A DNA stretch of 64,000 nucleotides from Minisyncoccia bacterium (lineage in GTDB: Bacteria; Patescibacteriota; Minisyncoccia; Phycocordibacterales; UBA9973): NCBI GenBank assembly GCA_049303835.1, contig JBAQNN010000002.1, positions 94,492-158,491 on the forward strand, given 5' to 3'. Position 1 is the stretch's first letter. Every line of letters begins with the position of its first letter. Below the pieces are notes generated by a model, which saw only the letters and a program-made list of their open reading frames with translations, ran no database searches and was not told the DNA's origin. Of the stretch, positions 2,985-62,385 are shown piece after piece. The position numbers were made by a program, and so were the translations under genes.

Positions 2985-3464
2985 TTAAATTTTTAGCATT
3001 CCAAAGAGTGCCACACCCAAGGCTACCGAGACATTTAGTGATTCCTTTTTTCCACGCATTGGAATCTCAGCAACAATATCGCACTTTTTTAAAATATTCT
3101 TTGGTATACCTGTCACTTCCGCCCCGACAATGAACGCGTTTCTATTTTGTAACTTTACTTTTTTGTAATCAATAGACTTTTTATCTTGTTCTATGCCAAT
3201 AATTAAATATTTTTCTTTCTTTAATTTAGTGAGTAATTGTAAAATATTTTTCTTCTGTTCCCATTTCACAAATTCTTCCGCCCCGAGCGCAGACTTTGCC
3301 AAGTCTCCTCTCTTCCTACCGAAACGATCCAGCGGCGTAGGCGTGTACCCCGTCAAATAAATCTTATCTATCCCCGCCGCATCCGCCGTGCGAAACATCG
3401 CTCCGACATTTTCCACACTTCGTATGTCATTTAATATTAAAATGTTTTTTTGATTCATAATCAT
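2985..3464 (-). CDS. SpoU/TrmH-family RNA 2'-O-methyltransferase
   Basis: 159 aa, NVGAMFRTADAAG and IPMRG..ESLNVSVA motifs of the SPOUT class. 4-nt overlap with uvrC. Confidence 0.8.
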   Translation of the reverse strand: MIMNQKNILILNDIRSVENVGAMFRTADAAGIDKIYLTGYTPTPLDRFGRKRGDLAKSALGAEEFVKWEQKKNILQLLTKLKKEKYLIIGIEQDKKSIDYKKVKLQNRNAFIVGAEVTGIPKNILKKCDIVAEIPMRGKKESLNVSVALGVALFGMLKI

Positions 3465-4690
3465 TTTAGAAAGTTTCTATTCCTCATATTTTTATGATAA
3501 GCGATAGCAAAGCGGTGAGATTCACTGTTTGCTAATAAAATTTCTTTTTTATATTTCAACCCAAACTCTCTATCCCCCATTATTGCTCTGGCTTTATGAT
3601 GTTCATCTTTTACAACTGAGACTACCGGGATATTTATTTTTAATTTATTTAAAATTTTTCTAGCAATATTTATTTGCGCCATACCGCCATCCACCACTAT
3701 CAAATTCGGGTAAGTCCATTCTGTGTGGGCAAGGCGTCTTTCCAATACTTCTTTCAAGGCTCCAGTATCGTTCGCATCAGTTTGCGTTCTAATTTTAAAT
3801 TTTTTATATTCATTTTTTACCACTTCCCCATCTTCCATCACCACCATGACCCCCACCATATTTTTGCCACCCATATGCGCAATATCATAAGCCTCTATAC
3901 GAGCTCCTGAAACAAGAAAATTTTTATTCGTGTGGGCCCCGCCCGGTACTCCGGGAAGGGAGGAACGAGAAAAATTTTCTTGTTTCAGGAGTGCCACATC
4001 GTTTATGTGCTTCAGTGCAAACATTTGTCTCTTTATTTCCCCCGCTTTCTCAAATTCCTGCTTTTTAGCATACTCTTGCATTTCTTTTTTAAGATTTTTA
4101 AAAATTCTTTTCTTTTTACCCTCAAAAAACAAAATAATATTTTTTATATTTTGTTTATATAATTTTTTATCGTTCAAATCAGGAACCAGGTTTATCTGTT
4201 TATAAAATTCCAAATAGTTCTTGCTTTTCTCGTCCAAAAATGGAAAAATCCTTCGTACTATTTTTAAAGCTTCTCTGAGTTGGGAGCCATTCGGGTAAGG
4301 TCCAAAAACGTTCTTTTCATTTTTTAAATTTTTTCCTCTAACAATAATTACTTTTGGAAGTTGTTCGTCTGTGACACAAACATAATTAAAACTTTTATCC
4401 GATTTTTCTTTAGTATTATACTTCGGCTGATGTTTTTTAATGAGTTTTGCTTCCAGAATAAGCGCTTCCAAGACACTGTCTGTGATCTGCCATTTTATTT
4501 TATCCGCCTTAAAAACCATATCCACTAAGATGGGTCCCCTCGTCTGTATCAAGTCTTTCCCAAAATAACTTCTCACCCTATCTTTAAGCGACGTAGCTTT
4601 GCCAATGTAAATGATTTTCCCTTTTTCTAAGAAAAAATAGACACCGGAATTATCAGGTATTTTAAATTTTTTTAGATTTTTACTATTCAT
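3461..4690 (-). CDS. uvrC: excinuclease ABC subunit C (short form, no C-terminal HhH)
   Basis: 409 aa, GIY-YIG (GVYFF...IYIGKA), UVR domain (EFEKAGEIKRQ), then the IEAYDIAHMGG endonuclease region. Confidence 0.85.
   Translation of the reverse strand: MNSKNLKKFKIPDNSGVYFFLEKGKIIYIGKATSLKDRVRSYFGKDLIQTRGPILVDMVFKADKIKWQITDSVLEALILEAKLIKKHQPKYNTKEKSDKSFNYVCVTDEQLPKVIIVRGKNLKNEKNVFGPYPNGSQLREALKIVRRIFPFLDEKSKNYLEFYKQINLVPDLNDKKLYKQNIKNIILFFEGKKKRIFKNLKKEMQEYAKKQEFEKAGEIKRQMFALKHINDVALLKQENFSRSSLPGVPGGAHTNKNFLVSGARIEAYDIAHMGGKNMVGVMVVMEDGEVVKNEYKKFKIRTQTDANDTGALKEVLERRLAHTEWTYPNLIVVDGGMAQINIARKILNKLKINIPVVSVVKDEHHKARAIMGDREFGLKYKKEILLANSESHRFAIAYHKNMRNRNFLK
3904..3991. repeat. in-frame hairpin insertion inside uvrC (22-bp perfect stem, GC-rich core)
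   Basis: 3904-3925 CTCCTGAAACAAGAAAATTTTT is the exact reverse complement of 3970-3991. The core contains CCCGG-TACT-CCGGG. Confidence 0.7.
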
Positions 4691-4691
4691 A

Positions 4692-7358
4692 TTATCTTCT
4701 TAAAACTTTTTTAAGGTATTTACCTGTATGAGATTTGCTATTATTGGCGACTTCTTCCGGAGTTCCTTTGGCTACAATATTTCCTCCTTTCACTCCACCC
4801 TCAGGTCCAATATCTATAATGTAATCTGAGCTTTTAATAATATCAAGGTTGTGTTCTATGAGAACAACGGTATTGCCTTTGGAAACCAGTTTATTTAAAA
4901 CTTCTAAAAGCTTTTGTACGTCATCATAATGAAGCCCGACTGTCGGCTCATCTAAAAGGTAAATAGTTTTTTCTAAATGCGGACGATAAAGTTCGCTTGA
5001 GATTTTTACCCTCTGTGCTTCCCCTCCGGATAGCGTCGTCGCTGGTTGTCCAATCTCAAGATATCCTAGACCCACATCCATCAAAGTCTGTAGCCTGTCA
5101 GAAACTGCTGGAATATCTTTAAAAAATTCCAATCCTTTTTCCACCGTCATACGAAGCACTTCATAAATATTTTTCTTCTTATATTTTACAGTAAGAGTTT
5201 CTTTATCAAAACGCTTTCCTCCACACACATCACAAGTCACATAAACCGTCGGCAAAAAATGCATCTCTACGGCAATTTCTCCATTACCCTCACAAGCTTC
5301 ACAACGTCCGCCCTTCACATTGAAAGAAAAACGGTTTGCTTTCCAGCCTCGCAATCGTGCTTCTTCTGTAGAAGCGAAAAGATCTCGAATATGCGTAAAA
5401 GCACCAGTATAAGTGGCTATATTTGATCTAGGAGTCCTGCCTATTGGTGACTGATCAATCAATATCGCGCGAGAAAGATACTCCGTACCAGAAAATGAAG
5501 AACAGTTAGATACCTGCGCTGTGCGATATTTTCTTTCATAACGCGCCTGTAAATTTTTATAAAGAATTTCATACATAAAAGAACTTTTACCAGAACCAGA
5601 AACTCCAGTGATGGATGTCATCACTCCGAGGGGCACTTCCACATTCATGTTGTTTATATTAAAAATTTTTCCCCCACTTACCCTAAGCGCACCCTTGGCT
5701 TGTCGTCTTTTTTCCGGAACTTCTATTTTTATTTCTTCCCGTAAATAAGCGAGAGTTCTAGAATTATTTACATTCTTTTTGGCAGTTAATAAATCCTCTA
5801 AATAACCGGAAGCTATCACCTCTCCACCGTGCACTCCTGCCTTAGGTCCGATATCCACAATATAATCAGAAGCATAGATAGTGTCTTCATCATGTTCCAC
5901 GATCAAAATTGTATTCCCTAAATCACGAAGATTTTGAAGAGTTTTAATTAATCTATCATTGTCTCGCTGGTGAAGACCTATCGTGGGTTCATCTAATACA
6001 TAAAGCGCACCGACCAACCTAGAACCAAGCTGGGAGGCCAGACGGATGCGTTGCGCTTCTCCCCCAGAGAGCGTGTTGGCCTTACGAGACAGTTGCAGAT
6101 AGTCCAAACCGACATCCAACATAAACTGGAGCCTAGCTTCTATCTCCCTCACCACCGGCACAGATATTTCTTTCTCTTGTGGGGAAAGTTTTAAATTCTT
6201 AAAGAAGTCATGCGCATCTTTAATGGAGAGCGAAGACAATTCCAAGATATTTATTTTTTTGTTTTTATCCGCTTCTAAAAATACATTGAGAGCTTCGGGA
6301 CGCAGTCTGGCACCATGACAAGTATCACACGGCTCATCTCCCATAAAATATTTTGAACCCAAACCATTACATTCCGGACAAGCCCCATAGGGAGAATTAA
6401 AAGAAAACAGCCTCGGCTCAACTTCCGGAAAAGAAAAGCCGTCATTTTTACAAGCAAATTTTGAGGACATAATAAATTCATTATCTCCGATCTTGATAGT
6501 AACCAGTCCGTCGGATTCAATAAGCGTTCGCTCTATCGCCTCGGATAAACGCATCCTACTTGCTTCTTTGTCATCAACAAACTCATGCACCGCAAAACTA
6601 TCTACTAGAATATCTATGTTGTGAGCTTTGTTTTTAGAGAGAGTAATTTGTTCTCGCAGTTTTTTCATCGCGCCATCCAAACGGATTTCGGCAAAACCTT
6701 TGCCAAGTAAATCATAAAGCATTTGGTAATATTCCCCTTTCCTCCCACGAACTACTGGTGAAAAAATACTAATTTCTGTTTCATCAAACTCCACCCCCAT
6801 CACTTTCCTCACATTCTTTTTTGGAGTTCGGGAAGAAGAATTTTGAACGGGAAAGGTTCCAGCCGGAGGCTGGAGTAATCCGGAAAAATTCTTCTTCCCG
6901 AACTCTCCCACTTTTTCCAAAACAAAATTCAAAATTTCTTCATTGGAAAGTTTTTTAATTTCCTCTCCACACAAAGGGCAATGCGGATGTCCGATGCGCG
7001 CATACATCACCCGCAAATAATCATAAATTTCTGTGATAGTAGCCACAGTGGAACGTGGGTTATTTGAACGAGATTTTTGGTCAATAGAAATTGCCGGTGA
7101 AAGACCGGTAATCTCATCCACATCTGGTTTCGGCATTTGATTTAAAAATTGTCGCGCGTAAGAAGACAGGGATTCCACATATCTCCTTTGCCCTTCCGCA
7201 AAGATAGTGTCAAAAGCCAAGGATGATTTTCCAGACCCGGAGACACCGGTAATAACCACCATCTTATTTCGTGGCATCTCCACGTTTATATTCTTTAAGT
7301 TATGGGTCCGCGCCCCCTTAACTACTATTTTATCTATATTTTTCTCTTGTTTTGTCAT
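4692..7358 (-). CDS. uvrA: excinuclease ABC subunit A
   Basis: Two ABC modules (GVSGSGKSS twice, LSGGEAQR twice) and zinc modules. I prefer the internal start [11 protein letters not shown] at 7358 over the track start at 7394. Confidence 0.9.
6824..6905. repeat. in-frame hairpin insertion inside uvrA (21-bp perfect stem, GC-rich core)
   Basis: 6824-6844 GAGTTCGGGAAGAAGAATTTT is the exact reverse complement of 6885-6905. Inner hairpin CCAGCC-GGA-GGCTGG at 6859-6873. Confidence 0.7.
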
Positions 7359-7438
7359 ATTTGTCCGCCCACTAGCGGATAACGCAATGCACACCCCGCT
7401 TTGTTCATAGGGGGTGTCTATCTCAATAATCTAACATA

Positions 7439-11559: not shown

Positions 11560-14016
11560 CTACTTTACTTCTCCCAAATTTTTCCCTGAACCAGAGTGCA
11601 CCAGAAGAGGGACATCTGTTTTAAAATGAAGATATGACCGCAAGAGTACCCCCTCCATGGCTTCTTTGATTATTTTATCGGCTGTATCCAATACACCGTC
11701 TTCGGTCTCATATACTAATTCGTCGTGAATTTGTAAAATCAAATGAACCTTATCCAACATACCGGCGTTTTTTAGATCCTCTTCCGCATACCTTATGGCT
11801 AATTTAATAATATCAGCTGCTGTACCCTGTATCGGTGCGTTTGTGGCCGTTCGCTCAGCCATATTTTTTAAAAAAGGAATTCTGGAGTTAATGTTTGGGA
11901 AATAACGCCTACGACCAAATAGAGTTTCCGTATAAGAATGTTTTTCGGCAAAAACTTTTACTCCATTTAAATAGTCCCTCACTCCCCTAAACTGATGAAA
12001 ATAATTATCGTAAAATTTTTGAGCTTCTTCGCGAGTACCTCCCAGATTTTTACGCAAGGCCGAAACCCCCATGCCATAAATAATACCGAAGTTTATAACT
12101 TTTGCCTTCCGACGCATCTCGCTGTCCACTTTCTCTATCGGAACTCCGAAAACAAATGAAGCGACCCCGGCATGAATATCTTTTTTTTCTTTAAAAACTT
12201 GGGTCATCTTTTCGTCCAAAGAAAGCATCGCTGCGACCCGCAATTCAATCTGGCTATAATCAAAAGCAATAAGTTTGTGCCCTTTTTCTGCGATAAAACC
12301 ATCCCTGATTTTTTTCCCCAATTCTGTTTTTATTGGTAAATTTTGTAGATTTGGATCCTGAGATGAAAATCTGCCGGTGGTAGAGCCATTTTGAATAAAC
12401 TTAGCGTGTAGGCGACCATCATCACCCGCCATTTTAGGGATAACATCAATATAAGTGGAAAGTAATTTCTGTAATTCCCGGTAAGCCATTATTTCTTTTA
12501 TTATTTCATTCTCTTCTTCCAATTCTTCCAATACCGAAATCTTGGTAGAAAAACCTCCACTGGCATTTTTCTTTGCCTTGTTTTTACCTGGAGATTTTAT
12601 TCCTAATTTATTAAAAAGTATTTCTCCCAGTTGTTTGGGAGAATTGATATTGAATTCTGTTCCGGCCTGCTGGTATATTTTTTTTGTTAAAATATCCAAT
12701 TCTCTGTGATATTCTTCTGATAACTTTTCAAAATATTTTTTATCTATCAAGACCCCATGGTCCTCCATTTTTTTTACGATGGGTATAATCGGTTTTTCTA
12801 TTTCTTCATAAACTTTTTCAAGATTTTGTTCTTTTAATTTTTTGAAAATATGCTCATAGGCTGTTTCAAAAGATTCGGTATGCGCATAAAGTAAAATATC
12901 TTCCAGATTTGGATTAGAAATATCAGAATTGATAATCCATAAAGCAATACTAGCTTCTTGTAGTTTTTTTGAGTCCACAGAATCCTGGCGAGAGTGCTCG
13001 GAGGAATCTTCGCTACTGGCAGAAAAACCTTGCTCCTCCAGGACAGATTGCGAATGACGGAGAGCATCTTCGCCAGGATTCTGACTTTCAAAAAAGTTTC
13101 TTAAACGTCCAAGCAAACTTCTGAATTCAAATTGGGCGAAAACTTCTTCAATTTTTTTGAAATCAGCATTTTCCCAAAAAGTCTTCTCTGGCAAAGAGAA
13201 ATTTATTGGCGCATCTGTACGGATGGTCGCCAGTGTTTTTGAAAATAAAGCTTCTTCTTCGTTATTTTTTAATAGCTCAATCATCCTAGGACTAATGCCC
13301 ACTTTTTTAAATTGTAATTCGTAATTTGTACTTCGTAATTGCTTATAAATTTCTTCTATGGTGCCAAAATTTACAATCAAGTTTTCAGCCGTCTTTTCAC
13401 CTATACCTTTGATACCAATAATATTGTCAGATGGATCTCCTCGTAATCCCTTGTAGTCTGGTAAAAGCTTTGGTTTAAAACCAAAACGTTTCACTACCGC
13501 ATCCTCATCATATAAAATAGTATCGTTGATTCCCTTCTTTAGGGTATATATTTGAACTTTCTTATCATCCACCAACTGCATGGTGTCCATATCTCCGGAA
13601 GCAATAACAATATTCAGACTTCTGTCTTTTTTGTATTTCTCAACGATAGTTCCCAACACATCATCCGCCTCAAACCCGGGAGCATCGTAAATAGGAATAC
13701 TGAAAGCCTCAAAAATCTTCCGAGAGTTTTGTAATTGCACAATGAGTGCTTCGTCGGCTTTTACCCGACCGGCCTTATACGCATCATAAGCTTCGTGTCT
13801 AAAGGTCTTTTGTGGCAAATCATAGCAAGCGACGATATAGTCTGGCTTTAGCTCGGTAATTATTTTCATCAACATGCTGGAAAGTCCGTATAGTGCCCCG
13901 GTAGGTTCACCTTTTCCAGACAAAAATTCCGGCAAGGCGTGGTAAGCACGATGAATGATGGCATGAGCATCCAACAGGACCAATTTTTTATTTTTCTGTT
14001 CTTCTGTTTTAGGCAT
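11560..14016 (-). CDS. polA: DNA polymerase I
   Basis: 818 aa, 5' nuclease domain (LLDAHAIIHRAYHA), pol motifs DYSQIELRV, RRKAKVINFGIIYG, QIHDELV. Confidence 0.95.
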   Translation of the reverse strand: MPKTEEQKNKKLVLLDAHAIIHRAYHALPEFLSGKGEPTGALYGLSSMLMKIITELKPDYIVACYDLPQKTFRHEAYDAYKAGRVKADEALIVQLQNSRKIFEAFSIPIYDAPGFEADDVLGTIVEKYKKDRSLNIVIASGDMDTMQLVDDKKVQIYTLKKGINDTILYDEDAVVKRFGFKPKLLPDYKGLRGDPSDNIIGIKGIGEKTAENLIVNFGTIEEIYKQLRSTNYELQFKKVGISPRMIELLKNNEEEALFSKTLATIRTDAPINFSLPEKTFWENADFKKIEEVFAQFEFRSLLGRLRNFFESQNPGEDALRHSQSVLEEQGFSASSEDSSEHSRQDSVDSKKLQEASIALWIINSDISNPNLEDILLYAHTESFETAYEHIFKKLKEQNLEKVYEEIEKPIIPIVKKMEDHGVLIDKKYFEKLSEEYHRELDILTKKIYQQAGTEFNINSPKQLGEILFNKLGIKSPGKNKAKKNASGGFSTKISVLEELEEENEIIKEIMAYRELQKLLSTYIDVIPKMAGDDGRLHAKFIQNGSTTGRFSSQDPNLQNLPIKTELGKKIRDGFIAEKGHKLIAFDYSQIELRVAAMLSLDEKMTQVFKEKKDIHAGVASFVFGVPIEKVDSEMRRKAKVINFGIIYGMGVSALRKNLGGTREEAQKFYDNYFHQFRGVRDYLNGVKVFAEKHSYTETLFGRRRYFPNINSRIPFLKNMAERTATNAPIQGTAADIIKLAIRYAEEDLKNAGMLDKVHLILQIHDELVYETEDGVLDTADKIIKEAMEGVLLRSYLHFKTDVPLLVHSGSGKNLGEVK
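12978..13083. repeat. hairpin-forming GC-richer segment inside polA linker
   Basis: 12978-12991 CAGAATCCTGGCGA is the exact reverse complement of 13070-13083. Stem extends by TGCTC/GAGCA; inner GGAGGA (13000-13005) pairs with TCCTCC (13034-13039). Confidence 0.55.
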
Positions 14017-41562: not shown

Positions 41563-42417
41563 CTAGTTTTTAGCAAGCATTGACCAGTCTGATAGTGACA
41601 AATCTTCCGCTCTTTTATCTCCCAAGTTTGCCGAAGACAATTTTTCGGTAGAAATCAACCCTTTTAGGTTTGAAGAAAGCTTTTTGCGCTTGTGGGCAAA
41701 GCCATTTTTCACTATTTCCCAAAATTTTTCTTCATTTATTTTATTTTTATAAAAAAATTGACGAGAAATATTTTTTATCTCAATGATTGCCGAATCAACC
41801 TTGGGCTCGGGAGAAAAATACCTCTTATTTACCTTCATAACCATTTTCGGTTCCCCATATGCCTTCACGGAGATAGAAAGGATACTCTCCTTCCCGTCTC
41901 TGGCGACTATTCTAGACGCCACCTCGTGCTGAACCATGAGCACCATACGCTCTGGCTGATTTTCTGCTGTCAAAAATTTTTTTAAAATAGCGCCAGTGAT
42001 GTTGTAAGGAATGTTGGCAATTAGCTTATAGCTACACAAAATATTCTCGGACTCACCACGCATATTCACCTGCTGGTGAATTGCTTTTCTCGCGCCGTCG
42101 CGCTGCGAAGAGGTTCGCTCTAGAACATTTTGTTTCAGGTTAAAGTTCAAAATATCTTCATTTATTAACACAAAAGCACCTAACTGAATTTGTGTGGCAA
42201 ATTTGGTTTTTAAAAACTCAAAAAGTTCTCTATCTTTTTCTACTGCTACTACAGTGGCTCCGGTCTGTAGAAGTTTTTCTGTTAGCGCTCCCTTGCCCGG
42301 ACCAATCTCTAGGACAACATCACCAGGTTTTATTTCTCCCGCCTCGATAATCTTCTTGAGAGCTAGCTCAGATTTCAAAAAATTCTGTCCAAGTGATTTT
42401 TTTGCTTTGTGTATCAT
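41563..42417 (-). CDS. rsmA: 16S rRNA (adenine1518/1519-N6)-dimethyltransferase RsmA/KsgA
   Basis: 284 aa, SLGQNFL, VLEIGPGKGALT, ANIPYNIT motifs. Confidence 0.9.
   Translation of the reverse strand: MIHKAKKSLGQNFLKSELALKKIIEAGEIKPGDVVLEIGPGKGALTEKLLQTGATVVAVEKDRELFEFLKTKFATQIQLGAFVLINEDILNFNLKQNVLERTSSQRDGARKAIHQQVNMRGESENILCSYKLIANIPYNITGAILKKFLTAENQPERMVLMVQHEVASRIVARDGKESILSISVKAYGEPKMVMKVNKRYFSPEPKVDSAIIEIKNISRQFFYKNKINEEKFWEIVKNGFAHKRKKLSSNLKGLISTEKLSSANLGDKRAEDLSLSDWSMLAKN
42036..42133. repeat. in-frame GC-rich hairpin insertion inside rsmA (homologous to the pcrA copy)
   Basis: Closing stem ACAAAAT.TTCT / AGAA.ATTTTGT. Hairpin ATTCACC-TGCT-GGTGAAT (42064-42081) and hairpin GCGC-CGTC-GCGC (42092-42103). 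Confidence 0.7.
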
Positions 42418-43962: not shown

Positions 43963-45990
43963 TTATAAGTAAATCGTTTTTATTCCGCTAGTTTCGCCTT
44001 CTTTTTCTAATAAATCTGCTGGGATGTCGGAAATAAATTCCGAAGGAGCGTTTATTTGGCGTGAGCCGAAAATGGTGCGGAAATTTGCAAAGGATAAAAA
44101 TAATTTTTCTTTCGCGCGAGTAAGGGCTACATAAAATAGTCGGCGTTCCTCTTCTCTATCCTCGCCTGTTTGTCTCTCGTTCTGTCTTTCGTGCGGAAAG
44201 AGTCCGTCTTCCAGCCCTGTGACAAAAACGTATTTAAACTCAAGGCCCTTTGAAGCATGGACAGTCATGAGTTTGACGGCATTTATCGTTTCTTTTTTTT
44301 CTGTTTGGATCATTAACGAATCTTGGTCACTCGCCAGAGCTCCATCTTCTAAAAGCTTTTCTATGCCTGCACCGTTTTCTAAATTATCGTATTTCAAAGC
44401 CAAGGTAGCAAGCTCTTTGATGTTTTCCAGTCTTTCTATGTCCTCCTCTCCCCCACCCAAAAGCTCTTGTTCAATGCCGGATTTTTTGACCACAAACTTT
44501 ATCACTTCACTCGCTTTGGCGGTTTTTATTTTTTCTTTTATTTCTTCCAGAATTTGATAAAAATTGTTTATTTTCACTCTGACTTTTATTGGTAGCCCCC
44601 CGATTTCATTAGCAAAAATTTTTACTAAAGTGACCTTACCTATTCCTCGCGCCGGGAAATTGATAATTCTTTTTATATCCGAGAGGCTGTCAGGGTTTAA
44701 GGCGGCACGTAAATATGCGAGGGTGTCTTTGATTTCTTTTCTTTCAAAAAACTTTACTCCGAGGACCTGATAAGGAATATTGTAGCGGAGCATCGCTTCT
44801 TCCAGTGCGCGGGATTGAAAGTTTGCGCGATACAAGACCGCAATCTCTGAGTGTGAGCCTAGAGAAGAATGTTGATCCATAATTTCTAAAATTTTTGTCG
44901 CCACAAACTCTGCTTCGTCGGTTTCATCCAACGCTTCGTAGAGTCCTATTTTATCGCCCACTACATTTTCAGTAAATAAATTTTTATCCGGGCGGTATTT
45001 GTTTTTTTTGATTATCTCATTGGCCGCTTCCAAAATATTCTTTGTAGAACGATAATTTTGTTCTAGTAAGATTATTTTTGCATTCGGATAATCTTTTTCA
45101 AAACTCAAAATATTTTTTAAATTTGCTCCGCGCCAGGAATAAATATTCTGATCCGCATCTCCCACTACGCAGATATTTTTGTTGTTTTCGGAAAGCAGTT
45201 TGGACATCAAATATTGCACTTCGTTGGTGTCTTGATATTCGTCTACATGGATGAAGTCCCATTTTTCTTGATAAATTTTCCTAATTTCTGCATTTTCTTT
45301 TAATAATTTTGTCGCTTTCAAAAGCAAGTCGTCAAAATCAAGCGAATTTTCCTTCATCTTTTGTTTTTCATACAAATTCCACACCTGGGCCACTATTTTC
45401 CCTAGAGTGTCACTAGCCCCTTCCGCATAATCGGATAAGTGCACGAATTTCCCCTTTTCGCGCGAGATTATATTTTTTATTTTTTTTGGATCGTATTGTT
45501 TCGGATCTATGCCAAGCTCTTTTAAGATATTTTTTATCAAAGTCGTCGCATCGCCCTCATCTAAAATTGTGAAATATTTTGTGAGTCCGAGCAATTTAGC
45601 ATTTTGTTTTATTATATAAACTCCGAGTGAGTGAAATGTAGAAACGAAAGGCGCAGAAAATACTTCTCGCCTGGGGTCGCTGTCTCCACGTGCTCGTGGA
45701 GCGCTCCCTCTCGGCTCGTCAGCCTGCGAGAGACCCCACTCAAGAAGATTTTCTGCGCCCAGGGCAGACATGATTCTCTCCCGCATTTCTTTCGCTGCTT
45801 TGTTTGTGAAAGTCACAGCCAAAATCTTCTCCGGAGCGATTCCATTTTTTATCAAATTTACGATTCTGTGGGTGATAGTCTTGGTTTTTCCTGCTCCTGC
45901 TCCGGCGACGACAAGAAGCGGACCGTCCATATGAAGCGCCGCCTCTTTTTGTTCGTTATTTAGCCCCGCCAAGTGCTCCAAATTAGTCAC
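43963..45990 (-). CDS. pcrA: ATP-dependent DNA helicase PcrA/UvrD (GTG start)
   Basis: 675 aa, motif I AGAGAGKTKT, Ia, II VDEYQDTN, TFHSLG, VHASKGLEF. Confidence 0.9.
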   Translation of the reverse strand: MTNLEHLAGLNNEQKEAALHMDGPLLVVAGAGAGKTKTITHRIVNLIKNGIAPEKILAVTFTNKAAKEMRERIMSALGAENLLEWGLSQADEPRGSAPRARGDSDPRREVFSAPFVSTFHSLGVYIIKQNAKLLGLTKYFTILDEGDATTLIKNILKELGIDPKQYDPKKIKNIISREKGKFVHLSDYAEGASDTLGKIVAQVWNLYEKQKMKENSLDFDDLLLKATKLLKENAEIRKIYQEKWDFIHVDEYQDTNEVQYLMSKLLSENNKNICVVGDADQNIYSWRGANLKNILSFEKDYPNAKIILLEQNYRSTKNILEAANEIIKKNKYRPDKNLFTENVVGDKIGLYEALDETDEAEFVATKILEIMDQHSSLGSHSEIAVLYRANFQSRALEEAMLRYNIPYQVLGVKFFERKEIKDTLAYLRAALNPDSLSDIKRIINFPARGIGKVTLVKIFANEIGGLPIKVRVKINNFYQILEEIKEKIKTAKASEVIKFVVKKSGIEQELLGGGEEDIERLENIKELATLALKYDNLENGAGIEKLLEDGALASDQDSLMIQTEKKETINAVKLMTVHASKGLEFKYVFVTGLEDGLFPHERQNERQTGEDREEERRLFYVALTRAKEKLFLSFANFRTIFGSRQINAPSEFISDIPADLLEKEGETSGIKTIYL
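45650..45759. repeat. in-frame GC-rich hairpin insertion inside pcrA (about 29 extra codons between motif Ia region and TFHS)
   Basis: 12-nt perfect terminal inverted repeat GGCGCAGAAAAT / ATTTTCTGCGCC, extended by CTTCT/AGAAG and TGGGGTC/GACCCCA. Hairpin CTCCACG-TGCT-CGTGGAG (45684-45701) and hairpin GGCT-CGTC-AGCC (45713-45724). Confidence 0.75.
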
Positions 45991-50919: not shown

Positions 50920-50968
50920 CGTATATTAAATAAAAATAGTTTGCAAAAAAATTAAGAGAAATTAGAAA

Positions 50969-51002
50969 GGGGCGGGGTGTCGATTTCTCGACTCCCCGCC
51001 CC
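50969..51002 (-). terminator. GC-rich rho-independent terminator of the small GC-rich ORF
   Basis: GGGGCGGGGtGTCGA-tttc-TCGACtCCCCGCCCC. In minus-strand sense it is followed by a U-rich tract (CTTTCTAATTTCTCTTAATTTTTTTT). Confidence 0.7.
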
Positions 51003-51238: not shown

Positions 51239-51252
51239 GGATAGATTTTTTG

Positions 51253-51323
51253 TGCGGGATGGGAGAATCGAACTCCCAACCTCAGTTTGGAAAACTGACG
51301 TTTTACCATTAAACTAATCCCGC
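51253..51323 (-). tRNA. tRNA-Gly (anticodon UCC), no encoded CCA
   Basis: Hand-folded: acceptor GCGGGAT/ATCCCGC, anticodon arm TCAGT-TTTCCAA-ACTGA, T arm GGGAG-TTCGATT-CTCCC. Confidence 0.9.
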
Positions 51324-59302: not shown

Positions 59303-61438
59303 ATGGGGCAAAATATGCAAAAAAAAGAATATAGTGTGGAGATTGGGGGTAAGACGATGACCGCTATTTTTAGTGATTTGGCGGAACAAGCGCATGGTTC
59401 GGTAATATTAAAATATGGAGAGACTATCGTCCTAGCTACCGCTTGTATGTCCAAAGACAGTCAGGCAGGGTTGGGATTTTTTAATTTGACGGTTGACTAT
59501 GTAGAAAAATTTTATGCGGCCGGAAAAATTTTAGGTTCGCGTTTTGTCAGGAGAGAAGGCAAACCTTCGGAAGAAGCGGTCTTGGGAAGTAGGGTGATAG
59601 ATCGTACCTTGCGTCCTTTGTTTGATCAGTCAGTGCGCCATGCCGTGCAAGTGATAGTGACGGTCTTGTCGGTAGATGAAAATGACCCGACGATTTTGGC
59701 TATCAATGCGGCCTCTCTCGCCCTCCTTGTATCGGATATTCCTTGGAACGGACCCGTTGGTTGCGTGCGTATCGGGAAATACGATAGTGAAGATTTGAAA
59801 ATTAATCCCGCACAATCTCTCCGAGTGAATGAAGAAACACAATACAAATTTGATATGACTGTCTGTGGGAAGAATGGGCACATCAATATGATTGAAGCTT
59901 CCGCTCGTCAAGCGAAAGAAGCGGAACTGGAAGAAGCACTCCAAGTCGCGAGTGCGGAGATAGTCAAGTTGGAAGATTTTCAGAAAAAAATAGCGTCGGA
60001 AATCGGTAAAGAAAAGAGAGTGATAGAAAAAGGAACAATCTCTCCGGAAGCGGTTGCCTTGTTTAACGAAAATATTTTACCGAAAATGGAGGATGCTATA
60101 TTTGAAGGTCCGGGCAAAACAAAGATTGATGCCCTCCATACTACTTGGAATAATTTGGTGAAAGAAAAGTTTCCTGATAGAGAAGATTTTAGTTTGGAAG
60201 ATAATTTGTTTGATGATACAGAAAATGAAATTCTGCACAAAAAAGCGATAGACGAAGACAAGCGCGCCGACGGCAGGAAAATGGATGAGCTTCGTGACTT
60301 ATATGCGCAAGCAGGAGGGCTCTCTAGTCAGCTTCACGGGTCCGGAATTTTTTATCGCGGAGGGACTCACGTGCTCTCAGTGTTGACACTTGGTGGTCCG
60401 GAAGAAAGAAATTTAGTGGATGGTTTACAATTGAAAGTAGAAAAAAGATTTATGCATCACTATAACTTTCCACCGTATTCATCAGGAGAAGTGGGAAGAT
60501 TTGGCACGACCAATCGCCGAGAAGTGGGGCACGGAGCACTCGCCGAAAAAGCACTTGCGATGGTATTGCCTTCGGTTTCGGAATTTCCTTACACGATGAG
60601 AATCGTCTCCGAATCAATGGCGTCCAATGGTTCCACTTCTCAGGCTTCTATTTGCGCCGGTGTGCTTGCGCTCATGGATGGAGGAGTTCCCATCAAAGCT
60701 CCAGTCGGTGGTATCGCCATGGGGCTGATGTATGAGGATGACAAAAAATATAAAATACTTACTGACATTCAGGGTCCGGAAGATCATCATGGTGATATGG
60801 ATTTCAAAATTGCAGGAACTAGAGAGGGAGTCACTGCTATCCAATTGGACGTAAAGGTAGAAGGAGTGCCGATAAAGATATTGGGTGAAGCGATGATTCA
60901 ATCAAAAAAAGCCAGGGTCACCATCATAGACAGAATTGAAAAAGAAATTGCCAAACCTAGGGAAAATATTTCTATTAATGCTCCAAAAATATTGATCATT
61001 AAAATCAATCCGGAGAAAATAGGATTGGTCATCGGCGGAGGAGGAAAGACCATCAAAGAAATAAAAGAAAAATCTGGCGCGGAGATAACCATAGAAGATG
61101 ACGGTACAGTATATCTGACAGGGAAGGATGGTTCTGCGGAGAAGGCCAAAATGATAATAGAAGAAATGACCCACGAATTTAAAGTGGGAGAAATGCTGAA
61201 GGGTGAGATTGTAAAGATAGCTGATTTTGGAGCTTTTGTGAGACTAAATGATTTCTCTGACGGCATGGTGCATATCTCTGAGATTGCCCCATTTCGTGTG
61301 GAGCGTGTTTCGGATATAATAAAGGAAGGAATGATAGTCCCTGTCAAAGTCATAAATATTGATCCTGAACGTGGACGTATCGGGCTCTCAATCAAAGAAG
61401 CGGATAAAGACTTTTTCAAAAACAATGGATCCCGTTAG
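59303..61438 (+). CDS. pnp: polynucleotide phosphorylase
   Basis: 711 aa, two RNase PH domains, KH (GLVIGGGGKTIKEI) and S1 (GEIVKIADFGAFV). The alternative ATG at 59315 is also possible. Confidence 0.95.
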   Translation: MGQNMQKKEYSVEIGGKTMTAIFSDLAEQAHGSVILKYGETIVLATACMSKDSQAGLGFFNLTVDYVEKFYAAGKILGSRFVRREGKPSEEAVLGSRVIDRTLRPLFDQSVRHAVQVIVTVLSVDENDPTILAINAASLALLVSDIPWNGPVGCVRIGKYDSEDLKINPAQSLRVNEETQYKFDMTVCGKNGHINMIEASARQAKEAELEEALQVASAEIVKLEDFQKKIASEIGKEKRVIEKGTISPEAVALFNENILPKMEDAIFEGPGKTKIDALHTTWNNLVKEKFPDREDFSLEDNLFDDTENEILHKKAIDEDKRADGRKMDELRDLYAQAGGLSSQLHGSGIFYRGGTHVLSVLTLGGPEERNLVDGLQLKVEKRFMHHYNFPPYSSGEVGRFGTTNRREVGHGALAEKALAMVLPSVSEFPYTMRIVSESMASNGSTSQASICAGVLALMDGGVPIKAPVGGIAMGLMYEDDKKYKILTDIQGPEDHHGDMDFKIAGTREGVTAIQLDVKVEGVPIKILGEAMIQSKKARVTIIDRIEKEIAKPRENISINAPKILIIKINPEKIGLVIGGGGKTIKEIKEKSGAEITIEDDGTVYLTGKDGSAEKAKMIIEEMTHEFKVGEMLKGEIVKIADFGAFVRLNDFSDGMVHISEIAPFRVERVSDIIKEGMIVPVKVINIDPERGRIGLSIKEADKDFFKNNGSR

Positions 61439-61491
61439 AAATTTAACTGACGGGAGTAGTGGTAAAAATTAGCATATTAATTTCTAACGGG

Positions 61492-62385
61492 ATGGAGGAA
61501 AATAAAACACAATCCACCGCAAATGAAGAAAGTAATAAACTGGTAAAGACCTATGCCGAAGATATGGCGAGGGTTCTTGAAAATGATAAAGAAGGTTTAG
61601 TAAAAAAGATAATTCATGGAGACGAACAACACGAACAAGAGAAGAAAAATCTATCTCCTGAGTCAAAAAAGAATAAACTCTTTATGCTTATCGGCCTTAT
61701 CCTCATCTTCCTAGCTTTGTTAATTTTGTCGTATTTTCTTTTAAAGAAAAAGGAGATCAATACAGCCGCGGTACAAGAACAATTTATTCCCATCATTTTC
61801 AATGACAAGAGCACCTTTGTGGAAGTCGGAACTTTCAACAAAGAAGAGATAGTGCAGACCATCCTAAGTCATGTAAATAACACCGAAGTAAAAATCGGAG
61901 GTATAGAGGGAATTTATCTTACGGAGAACAAAAAGATTGTCGGGTTGCGGAGATTTATTTCCCTTATTAAGGGAAATTTGATCCCTGTTGAAAACAAGCT
62001 TCTGGTAGATGATAATTTTTTAATGGGTTCAATGCTGACAGGACTCAGATCTTCCTCGCCTACAGGCGGAGACTTTTTTATCTTGCTCAAGACTCGTTCT
62101 CTCTCGGATATTTTTGATTCTATGCGCGCTTGGGAAGAAAAAATGCTTACCGATTTGCACAAATTTATGGGAATCAGTTTGTCAGCAGAGACAAACTATC
62201 TTTTCACAAAAGATTTTGAAGACGGCATAGTAGAAAACAAAAACGCGCGCATCCTTCGCAATAAAGAAGGGGGGATAGTGTTGATGTATGTTTTTGCAGA
62301 TGAAAATTCTGTCATCATCACTAGTTCGGAACCCGTCACTCACGAAATAATCCTCCGCCTAGCCTCTGCCGGGAAGAAGCAGTAA
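61492..62385 (+). CDS. hypothetical single-pass membrane protein
   Basis: ORF open from 61459 (GTG). I prefer the ATG at 61492 (MEENKTQ...). TM helix LFMLIGLILIFLALLILSYFLL. Confidence 0.5.
   Translation: MEENKTQSTANEESNKLVKTYAEDMARVLENDKEGLVKKIIHGDEQHEQEKKNLSPESKKNKLFMLIGLILIFLALLILSYFLLKKKEINTAAVQEQFIPIIFNDKSTFVEVGTFNKEEIVQTILSHVNNTEVKIGGIEGIYLTENKKIVGLRRFISLIKGNLIPVENKLLVDDNFLMGSMLTGLRSSSPTGGDFFILLKTRSLSDIFDSMRAWEEKMLTDLHKFMGISLSAETNYLFTKDFEDGIVENKNARILRNKEGGIVLMYVFADENSVIITSSEPVTHEIILRLASAGKKQ

Follow-up and report, generated by a model that had tools for sequence, protein, structure and literature searches.

The 64,000-nucleotide (nt) stretch analyzed here (the window) comprises positions 94,492 to 158,491 of contig JBAQNN010000002.1 from a Minisyncoccia bacterium. 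A pcrA/uvrD gene of 675 amino acids (aa) occupies positions 43963 to 45990 on its minus strand and contains the Pfam domains UvrD-helicase (E 1e-87) and UvrD_C (E 2e-68), and its product matches the PcrA structure of G. stearothermophilus (1pjr) at E = 3e-160. The gene is otherwise intact, and at positions 45650 to 45759 (minus strand) it carries, in frame, a complete 110-nt copy of a palindromic repeat family that we call T1, which supplies residues G78-P114 (GAENLLEWGLSQADEPRGSAPRARGDSDPRREVFSAP). The covariance model of the family (R1) scores this copy at 93.5 bits. The element begins at codon position 1, and the pcrA open reading frame (ORF) continues through it without a stop. It forms the top GC peak of the window, with 62% GC over 100 nt and 72% over 60 nt compared to 38% for the whole window. 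Because the identical site carries the element in independent metagenome-assembled genomes (MAGs) and contigs (L001, L002, L007, and L156), we conclude that it is not an assembly artefact.

The element is built from an outer stem (P1) around a conserved 65-nt three-way-junction core (GGGGTC...GACCCC; 45673 to 45737, minus strand, as for all parts given here). The 5' arm of P1 (GGCGCAGAAAATCTTCTTGAGT; 45738 to 45759) lies outside this core, fits the arm consensus of the family, and pairs with the 3' arm (AGGCGAGAAGTATTTTCTGCGCC; 45650 to 45672), which has a one-base bulge, as does the 3' arm of most copies examined. The arms match perfectly over 12 nt and imperfectly over ≈28 nt. The 12-nt terminal sequence (GGCGCAGAAAAT) is found exactly twice in the window, as an inverted pair at 45650 to 45661 on the plus strand and 45748 to 45759 on the minus strand. 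Hairpin 1 (P2; 45708 to 45732) reads CUCUC-GCA-GGCU-GACG-AGCC-GAGAG, with the GACG loop at 45717 to 45720. Hairpin 2 (P3; 45679 to 45704) reads GCGCUCCACG-AGCA-CGUGGAGACAGC; its AGCA loop is conserved, and the five base pairs on its inner side are hypervariable in the T1 family. A preliminary description of this DNA had reported the 12-nt terminal inverted repeat, the two hairpins, and the three-way junction, and each of these was recovered where it had been placed.

Folding of a 131-nt region in the mRNA sense gave -69.1 kcal/mol compared to -47.9 ± 4.1 for shuffled sequences (z = -5.15; 0 of 200 shuffles), and the predicted RNA shape is a long outer stem around the hairpins GGCU-GACG-AGCC (with a CUCU/GAGG extension) and CUCCACG-AGCA-CGUGGAG. 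On the plus strand, the DNA folds equivalently (z = -5.03). A search of the whole window against Rfam 15 at the gathering threshold returned five tRNAs alone and no match to the element; at E ≤ 10, the sole match in positions 45500 to 45900 was a chance-level SNORD81 hit beside the element, and none covered it. A hammerhead ribozyme was considered and rejected: CUGACGAG resembles the CUGAUGA box, but it sits within a hairpin and has no GAAA box following it.

The insertion was delimited by comparison with 120 close PcrA homologues, which without exception come from MAGs of Minisyncoccia, Paceibacterota, or Nomurabacteria. Solved PcrA/UvrD structures skip the element segment in alignment; 1pjr aligns to residues 6-79 and 115-664 of the window PcrA, with 35 residues between these blocks compared to 5 in 1pjr. 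The stretch from EMRERI to TFHS is 44 aa long in the window PcrA compared to 18 aa in the nearest homologues with an empty site, which corresponds to a net gain of 26 codons (78 nt). This empty 18-aa loop is present in 51 of 114 homologues, including the nearest ones (P0003, P0004, and P0005; 89-91% identity), and the stretch spans 36-61 aa in about 50 others. The empty loop reads I[SA]EI[QE]KNAKGQDKIPFVS, which can also be written I[SA]EI[QE]KNAKGQ(D/N)x(I/V)PFVS. DNA alignment to the syntenic contig L080, whose PcrA is 89% identical, shows 35 nt where the window has 113 nt, and contigs L080, L028, and L004 have no T1 element at this location (site 1). The filled allele lacks the host loop QKNAKGQNEV, the residues upstream read MSALGAEN compared to ISEIQKN in the empty allele, and peptides predicted to span the junctions include ...GDSDPR / EVFSAPFVSTFHSLGVYIIK. 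At the window pcrA, 113 nt substitute for the 35-nt host loop, and the insertion is not clean.

These comparisons, with the intact ORF and the empty alleles of the closest relatives, confirm the earlier view of the segment as a stop-free, in-frame, GC-rich insertion relative to orthologues. The net 26 codons from the empty-site comparison are slightly below the preliminary estimate of ≈29 extra codons. Two further proposals did not hold. The 5' arm (GAENLLEW) had been taken as ancestral host sequence, and the empty allele of the nearest homologues reads otherwise. The 3' arm had been taken as an inverted copy of host sequence, and the arms fit the family consensus and length and accompany the core from one locus to another.

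The site-1 T1 allele is distributed patchily on a neighbor-joining tree of PcrA core columns. The six closest relatives of the window PcrA (distance 0.05-0.08) are all empty, and carriers lie at distances of 0.08-0.21. The empty allele retains the ancestral loop and therefore cannot stem from the filled allele through excision. The patchy pattern implies that the filled allele spread via recombination or re-insertion. A second loop of pcrA occupied by T1 (site 2) follows residue ≈375, and about half of the relatives have the site-1 and site-2 loops occupied. Several genomes (L002, L007, L132, L156, and L111) have two copies within one gene. The two pcrA loops also host at least three more families of like architecture, T2 (core GGTCCTCGGTTCTCCGGGTCCCTATCCCGGCCAGACC), T3, and T4, and they sometimes hold two elements in tandem. 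Besides palindromic elements, pcrA of this clade hosts inteins: the homologues P0020 (1032 aa) and P0108 (1073 aa) contain a 367-aa insert with the intein splicing domain PF14890 after window PcrA residue ≈281, which is a different site from those of T1.

T1 is a large family. A metagenome scan with the core pattern TCTCGCAGGNNGACGNNCCGAGAG, which fixes part of hairpin 1 and hence is uninformative there, matched at least 120 metagenome contigs. Many of the T1 contigs come from groundwater sites such as Hainich and Rifle. At least 91 distinct copies were obtained from genome loci and groundwater metagenomes, from Nomurabacteria, Paceibacterota, and Kaiserbacteria-like hosts, and all named source records are Nomurabacteria, Paceibacterota, Patescibacteria group, or similarly labeled MAGs of the candidate phyla radiation (CPR). 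Full-length matches to the 65-nt core, 88-94% identical and in both orientations, were found in further copies from 12 other genome loci, where PcrA is just 71-86% identical to that of the window. The T1 unit is ≈110-125 nt long, comprising the outer stem and the core, and the core length is fixed in 74 of 76 metagenome and genome copies. The arms are typically 28-32 nt long and have a weak consensus (GGAGAAAATTCTCTTTTnnGGGG / CCCCnnAAAAGAGAATTTTCTCC) that both window arms fit; beyond ≈12 nt from the junction they contain 0.03-0.8 bits of information per position, and the termini vary among copies. The bulge in the 3' arm tracks the orientation of the core, and whole units therefore insert either way round.

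Conservation of T1 is largely at the level of structure. In a gap-free alignment of 72 copies (A3), from which R1 was built, little or no variation is seen in the junction, the GACG loop, and the AGCA loop, and complementarity persists in the outer stem and in the five inner pairs of hairpin 2 through many different sequences. Paired cells amounted to 94.4% compared to 77.0% in column shuffles and ≈40% when the partner was slid, and there were 372 double-sided changes compared to 115 ± 10 in shuffles; 0 of 500 shuffles reached the observed value by any measure. In hairpin 2, the pairs of positions 47-51 with 56-60 show 22-38 double-sided changes each and hardly any G-U or broken pairs. In hairpin 1, the two free pairs (24-31 and 25-30 of the alignment) covary, with 100% pairing. 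Among five orthologous site-1 copies of equal length (the window, L001, L002, L007, and L156), 8 pairs also show compensatory double changes; therefore, pairing is maintained in place too. T1 is defined mostly by its shape, and its arms and second hairpin stem need only pair.

The mismatches that do occur distinguish the two strands of the element. G.T mismatches exceed A.C mismatches by ≈2.5 fold on the same element strand in sense (18:7), antisense (17:7), and noncoding (20:8) copies, for a total of 55:22. Hairpin 2 is nearly all Watson-Crick. Host mRNAs carry either strand, since both orientations are found in genes. This asymmetry points to the folding of one particular element strand, most simply as single-stranded DNA (ssDNA) during transposition or replication rather than as part of a host transcript. 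This inference draws on a small sample of mismatches, read in a fixed pairing register.

In AT-rich contigs, 48 of the 54 copies listed lie within ORFs of at least 150 aa. The host genes encode PcrA (two sites), RecG, UvrB, TsaD, TGT, peptide deformylase (Def), Fmt, and a class-I aminoacyl-tRNA synthetase. The T1 consensus is free of stops in all six frames, and each orientation is used in its own frame: 29 of 31 same-sense copies are in one frame that specifies the peptide G[VL]SQADGPRGSAPRARGDSDP (P = 3e-12 compared to an expectation of 1/3), and 23 of 26 antisense copies are in one frame that specifies GSLSPRARGALPLGPSACETP (P = 9e-9 compared to 1/3). The use of one frame per orientation implies that T1 in genes is probably translated with the host mRNA. 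The bias also speaks for filtering on the translated peptide, because removal at the RNA level imposes no frame. The peptide varies freely where the stems covary (ADE, AGG, or VDG; PRARG, VRART, or GAEAP); therefore, the constraint there is on the nucleic acid. AlphaFold2 modeling with 54 homologues predicted PcrA residues 84-109 to be coil with a predicted local distance difference test score (pLDDT) < 50, flanked by a confident helix (63-85) and strand (115-118). Among the host ORFs, that of the synthetase (L099, 6571 to 10302, minus strand; 1244 aa) contains, besides its T1 copy, a histidine-phosphatase domain (PF00300, residues 575-734) set within the synthetase core.

Movement of T1 is indicated by one copy of 115 nt with perfect 29-bp arms, which recurs with 100% identity at two unrelated loci (L085/L153 and L108) and is surrounded by the 3-bp direct repeats TAG...TAG and CTA...CTA. 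Since this identity includes the arms, the arms travel with the element, and T1 has recently transposed as an entire unit. Orientation relative to the host ORF is 32:28 among the copies listed. The same T1 copy with the same left flank is also found in L110 (1839 to 1953) and L085 (7002 to 7116); in L110, the first 8 bp of the right flank are an inverted duplicate of the left flank (GACCATAG...CTATGGTC), after which the sequence diverges, and this duplicate is absent in L085. It could be a fold-back extension of the stem or a rearrangement at the element. The stem of some copies extends a few bp into conserved host codons, such as an Asp codon at pcrA site 2. Local stem extension does seem to occur, yet it does not explain the origin of the arms of the window element.

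The setting of T1 is different in GC-rich contigs (47-60% GC), where copies are mostly intergenic and have GCGAG...GCGAG(C) direct repeats at their flanks. Examples are L107 (5118 to 5234), L160 (6278 to 6402; Paceibacterota/Kaiserbacteria-like, judged from a neighboring protein), and L127 (7078 to 7183). The GCGAG flank could represent a target motif or else a duplication of 5 bp. No GCGAG-flanked hairpins of other families were found in these contigs beyond the T1 copies. A right flank, GGAGGTTTTCAAACATGCTC, is common to four copies (L082, L138, L155, and L158). The T1 pattern was not found in IMG/VR viral contigs, and BLAST of plasmid and phage collections gave no match to T1.

A seeded inverted-repeat scan of the window found further palindromes, of which one is related to T1. 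The rsmA element (42034 to 42135, minus strand) is T3-like and belongs to the same superfamily; it is in frame and constitutes an 81-nt (27-codon) insertion compared to L080. Its relatedness to the pcrA element had been proposed previously, and R1 detected it over its full length (42045 to 42123; 35 bits, E about 2e-7). It shares with T1 the sequence UCGCAG-NNN-GACG-NNN-CGAG and the AGCA-loop hairpin, and its arms are of T3 type. The palindrome in uvrC (3904 to 3991, minus strand; ORF 3461 to 4690) is 88 nt long with 22-bp perfect arms (z = -7.4) and is in frame at residues 234-263, in the linker directly before the UvrC RNase-H-like domain. Its GC-rich inner hairpin (CCCGG-AGUA-CCGGG) is of T4 type (CCCGGAGUACCGGG) and also occurs in T4 at pcrA site 2 of L014. 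The palindrome in uvrA (6824 to 6905, minus strand; ORF 4692 to 7394) is 82 nt long with 21-bp perfect arms (z = -6.6) and is in frame at residues 164-191; solved UvrA structures align continuously past it, and the window UvrA has about 37 extra residues. The polA palindrome (12978 to 13083, minus strand; ORF 11560 to 14016) is an imperfect 106 nt with 22-nt arms that are 86% complementary (z = -4.1), and it lies in frame at residues 312-347 between the 5'-3' exonuclease and polymerase domains. No PDB match spans that segment, and its status as an insertion was therefore not confirmed. Within the window, BLAST and the covariance model gave no sign that the uvrC, uvrA, and polA palindromes belong to T1. 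Of the five intragenic elements of the window, four are in DNA-repair or replication genes.

Between the ORFs at 59303 to 61438 and 61459 to 62385, an AT-rich intergenic hairpin with 15-bp perfect arms (61429 to 61493, plus strand) gave a marginal full-length match to the T1 model at 61430 to 61493 (14 bits, E 0.16), and CUGACGGG and AGCA fall where the model expects them; this hairpin may be either a decayed relative or an ordinary terminator. Among short GC-rich hairpins of the window, the strongest (50956 to 51002; 47 nt, 60% GC, ≈-31 kcal/mol) is intergenic near a tRNA-Gly gene (51252 to 51323). Outside the window, chimeric elements combine hairpin 1 of T1 (GGCUGACGAGCC) with hairpin 2 of T3 (AAAUUUUCAGCAGAAAAUU) and score 41-50 bits with the T1 model (L025, 11191 to 11271 and 14007 to 14087; L031, 2201 to 2282 and 12213 to 12294). 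Hairpin modules appear to have been swapped between families. Other in-frame GC-rich hairpin families, encoding P/S/G/E-rich peptides (NTSPQPSPSKGEGGNG; SPLEEYPKGEVDEFSTPSRKRATPQEGN; GPHPPQTPPSAGGEESSPPAKGE), were found in rsmA of L080 (10713 to 10790) and at pcrA site 2 of L004, L019, and L028, and the element repertoire of these genomes far exceeds T1-T4.

T1 is multicopy, occupies many sites in both orientations, and is polymorphic among close relatives. We consider it likely that the pcrA segment belongs to a family of selfish mobile DNA, with small and non-autonomous members, in Parcubacteria/Paceibacteria. An element of this kind would be transcribed and translated with the host mRNA and would persist only where its ≈26-37 G/S/P/A/R/D-rich residues make a tolerated, disordered surface loop, without benefit to the host. 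Movement would depend on a trans-acting enzyme that recognizes a folded single strand, with specificity for one strand and for structure instead of for terminal sequence. Complementarity of the arms may be maintained by selection for the fold, by hairpin-templated correction, or by both, and alleles such as that at pcrA site 1 may spread among lineages through homologous recombination.

Several observations weigh against this interpretation. No transposase or partner gene was identified and no parent insertion sequence (IS) was seen in the loci read, where no search aimed at RAYT (REP-associated tyrosine transposase) or Y1 enzymes was made, and the terminal sequences of T1 are not conserved, which is atypical of MITEs (miniature transposable elements with inverted repeats) mobilized by a transposase. 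No target-site duplication was found consistently; across 68 copies, short flanking repeats were weakly enriched compared to permuted flanks, and at the pcrA site there is no duplication, the host loop being remodeled instead of merely interrupted. BLAST finds a single T1 copy in this 64-kb window. That several families, in both orientations, repeatedly fill the site-1 and site-2 loops of pcrA could reflect site-specific targeting or a host-level role instead of mere tolerance, and compensatory changes in vertically inherited copies are not predicted by pure selfishness unless repair is biased by templating. The G.T/A.C asymmetry comprises 77 mismatches read in a fixed pairing register, and translation is inferred from frame statistics.

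The same compensatory changes in orthologous, apparently vertically inherited copies, together with the strongly conserved loops, the recurrent filling of the two PcrA loops, seen in roughly half of the relatives, and the presence of four of the five intragenic window elements in DNA-repair or replication genes, would fit a domesticated element, in which the hairpin regulates or stabilizes mRNA or DNA, or the loop is a functional protein module, and host selection keeps it. We regard this as unlikely, given that the two orientations are equally common in genes, so that mRNAs bear either strand, and that the G.T excess tracks the element strand and not the mRNA strand. Moreover, the peptide varies freely wherever the stems covary, many close relatives lack the element, T1 is mostly intergenic in GC-rich relatives, and the host genes have unrelated functions. 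Still less probable, in our judgment, is removal of the segment as an intervening sequence, by intron-like excision, bypass, or a mini-intein, to give a PcrA without the extra loop. The long, near-perfect stem would bring both junctions together, and true inteins are present in the PcrA relatives P0020 and P0108. However, the extreme stop-free frame bias would be needless for removal at the RNA level, the element has no Rfam ribozyme or intron match, and the two orientations give different RNAs and peptides. As for a mini-intein, the 37 residues have no Cys/Ser/Thr...Asn architecture and are far too few; Pfam finds no intein domain in the window PcrA, and the insert is 26-37 aa compared to ≈130 aa or more for a splicing domain.

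A local origin of the palindrome, in which a GC-rich insert arrived and its 3' arm was made by template switching or fold-back copying of host GAENLLEW, is in the same way very improbable. It gains from the entry of the stem into conserved host codons at pcrA site 2, from the 8-bp inverted duplicate of the left flank in L110 that L085 does not have, and from the great differences in arms among copies. It is largely refuted for the window copy by the absence of the 5'-arm sequence from the empty allele. In addition, the arms share a family consensus and a characteristic length and move with the core between loci, and the conserved bulge tracks core orientation, which implies that whole units were inserted. 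A selfish mobile family remains our preferred explanation for T1. It is possible, and we propose this tentatively, that T1-T4 and their relatives form an unrecognized, Parcubacteria-specific class of structure-defined mobile elements. A dedicated or host enzyme would recognize a folded ssDNA three-way junction with fixed GACG and AGCA loops; arms and stems would drift and be re-homogenized in each round by hairpin-templated copying; spread would be homing-like, with co-conversion of flanks, into surface loops of essential genes as the sole safe harbors in compact genomes; and hairpin modules would be exchanged between families, to which chimeras such as that at site 2 of L025 may point.

Genomes of CPR/Patescibacteria are very small and densely packed with genes, and little selfish DNA is expected in them. 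Here, at least five palindromic elements lie in essential genes within 64 kb, and one family is present on at least 120 metagenome contigs. T1 would be a second, independent case of Rickettsia-style selfish DNA inside proteins, and its covariation, conserved loops, strand signature, frame filtering, and recent transposition are evidence on how such elements work. Elements of this kind inflate and fragment marker-protein alignments used for CPR phylogeny and produce hypervariable surface loops. Their use as strain markers is conceivable, and they provide a defined substrate for finding the mobilizing enzyme. The T1 family is apparently undescribed: in line with the preliminary description, the full-text literature searched, whose coverage lacks most subscription journals, contained no report of it from CPR bacteria.

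Among known systems, bacterial MITEs (Correia, ERIC, and Nezha, among others) are small, noncoding, and multicopy and occasionally form intragenic in-frame fusions; their terminal repeats are conserved in sequence and match the transposase of a parent IS (PMC10969869). T1 resembles them in having terminal inverted repeats and, at two recently transposed copies, a 3-bp flanking direct repeat. It differs in its hypervariable termini, in the lack of a parent IS in the loci read, and in being mostly intragenic in AT-rich hosts. Repetitive extragenic palindromic (REP) elements are 20-40 nt long, sequence-conserved, and extragenic, carry a GTAG or CGTC tag at the stem end, and are mobilized by RAYTs (PMC3733652). 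With the REP/REPIN-RAYT and IS200/IS605 systems T1 would share recognition of a folded single strand, as proposed above, and it has in common with them a strand-specific signature and GC-rich palindromes; with REP/REPIN it also shares a prominent CGTC/GACG tetranucleotide, and REPINs likewise form one long hairpin. In contrast, T1 is 110 nt long and intragenic, its GACG is a hairpin loop, and its stems are variable, whereas its loops and junction are conserved.

Fungal mitochondria reportedly contain GC-rich palindromic clusters and double-hairpin elements. Coding palindromes with conserved protein regions on both arms are described for Nematomorpha mitochondria (PMC6649704). The likeness to T1 consists of GC-rich hairpins in compact, AT-rich genomes that are tolerated in coding sequence and translated, with both structure and protein function kept. 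The mitochondrial palindromes are organellar, however, and the Nematomorpha arms described there encode conserved regions, whereas T1 is an added loop; no sequence or junction architecture is shared with those described.

The closest parallel is with Rickettsia palindromic elements (RPEs), a likeness that was pointed out in the preliminary description and that is supported by the finding of a structured palindromic repeat in frame in genes. According to PMC10969869, the RPEs (RPE-1 and others; Ogata et al., 2000) are multicopy, hairpin-forming palindromes of ≈100-150 bp that fall into several families and sit in frame in genes of unrelated function; the conserved peptide specified by each family is judged to be compatible with protein folding, and the enzyme that transposes them is unknown. 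T1 is similarly palindromic (110 nt here and 115 nt in L085, with at least 91 copies) and lies in frame, with a conserved peptide, in unrelated housekeeping genes of bacteria with small genomes. Its hosts belong to another phylum (Patescibacteria/Parcubacteria), and we draw the likeness as an analogy and do not claim membership. Unlike the RPEs, T1 is GC-rich in AT-rich hosts and forms a three-way junction that encloses two hairpins, conservation in its arms and in one hairpin stem is solely of base pairing, and it is found in both orientations, with its own reading frame in each.

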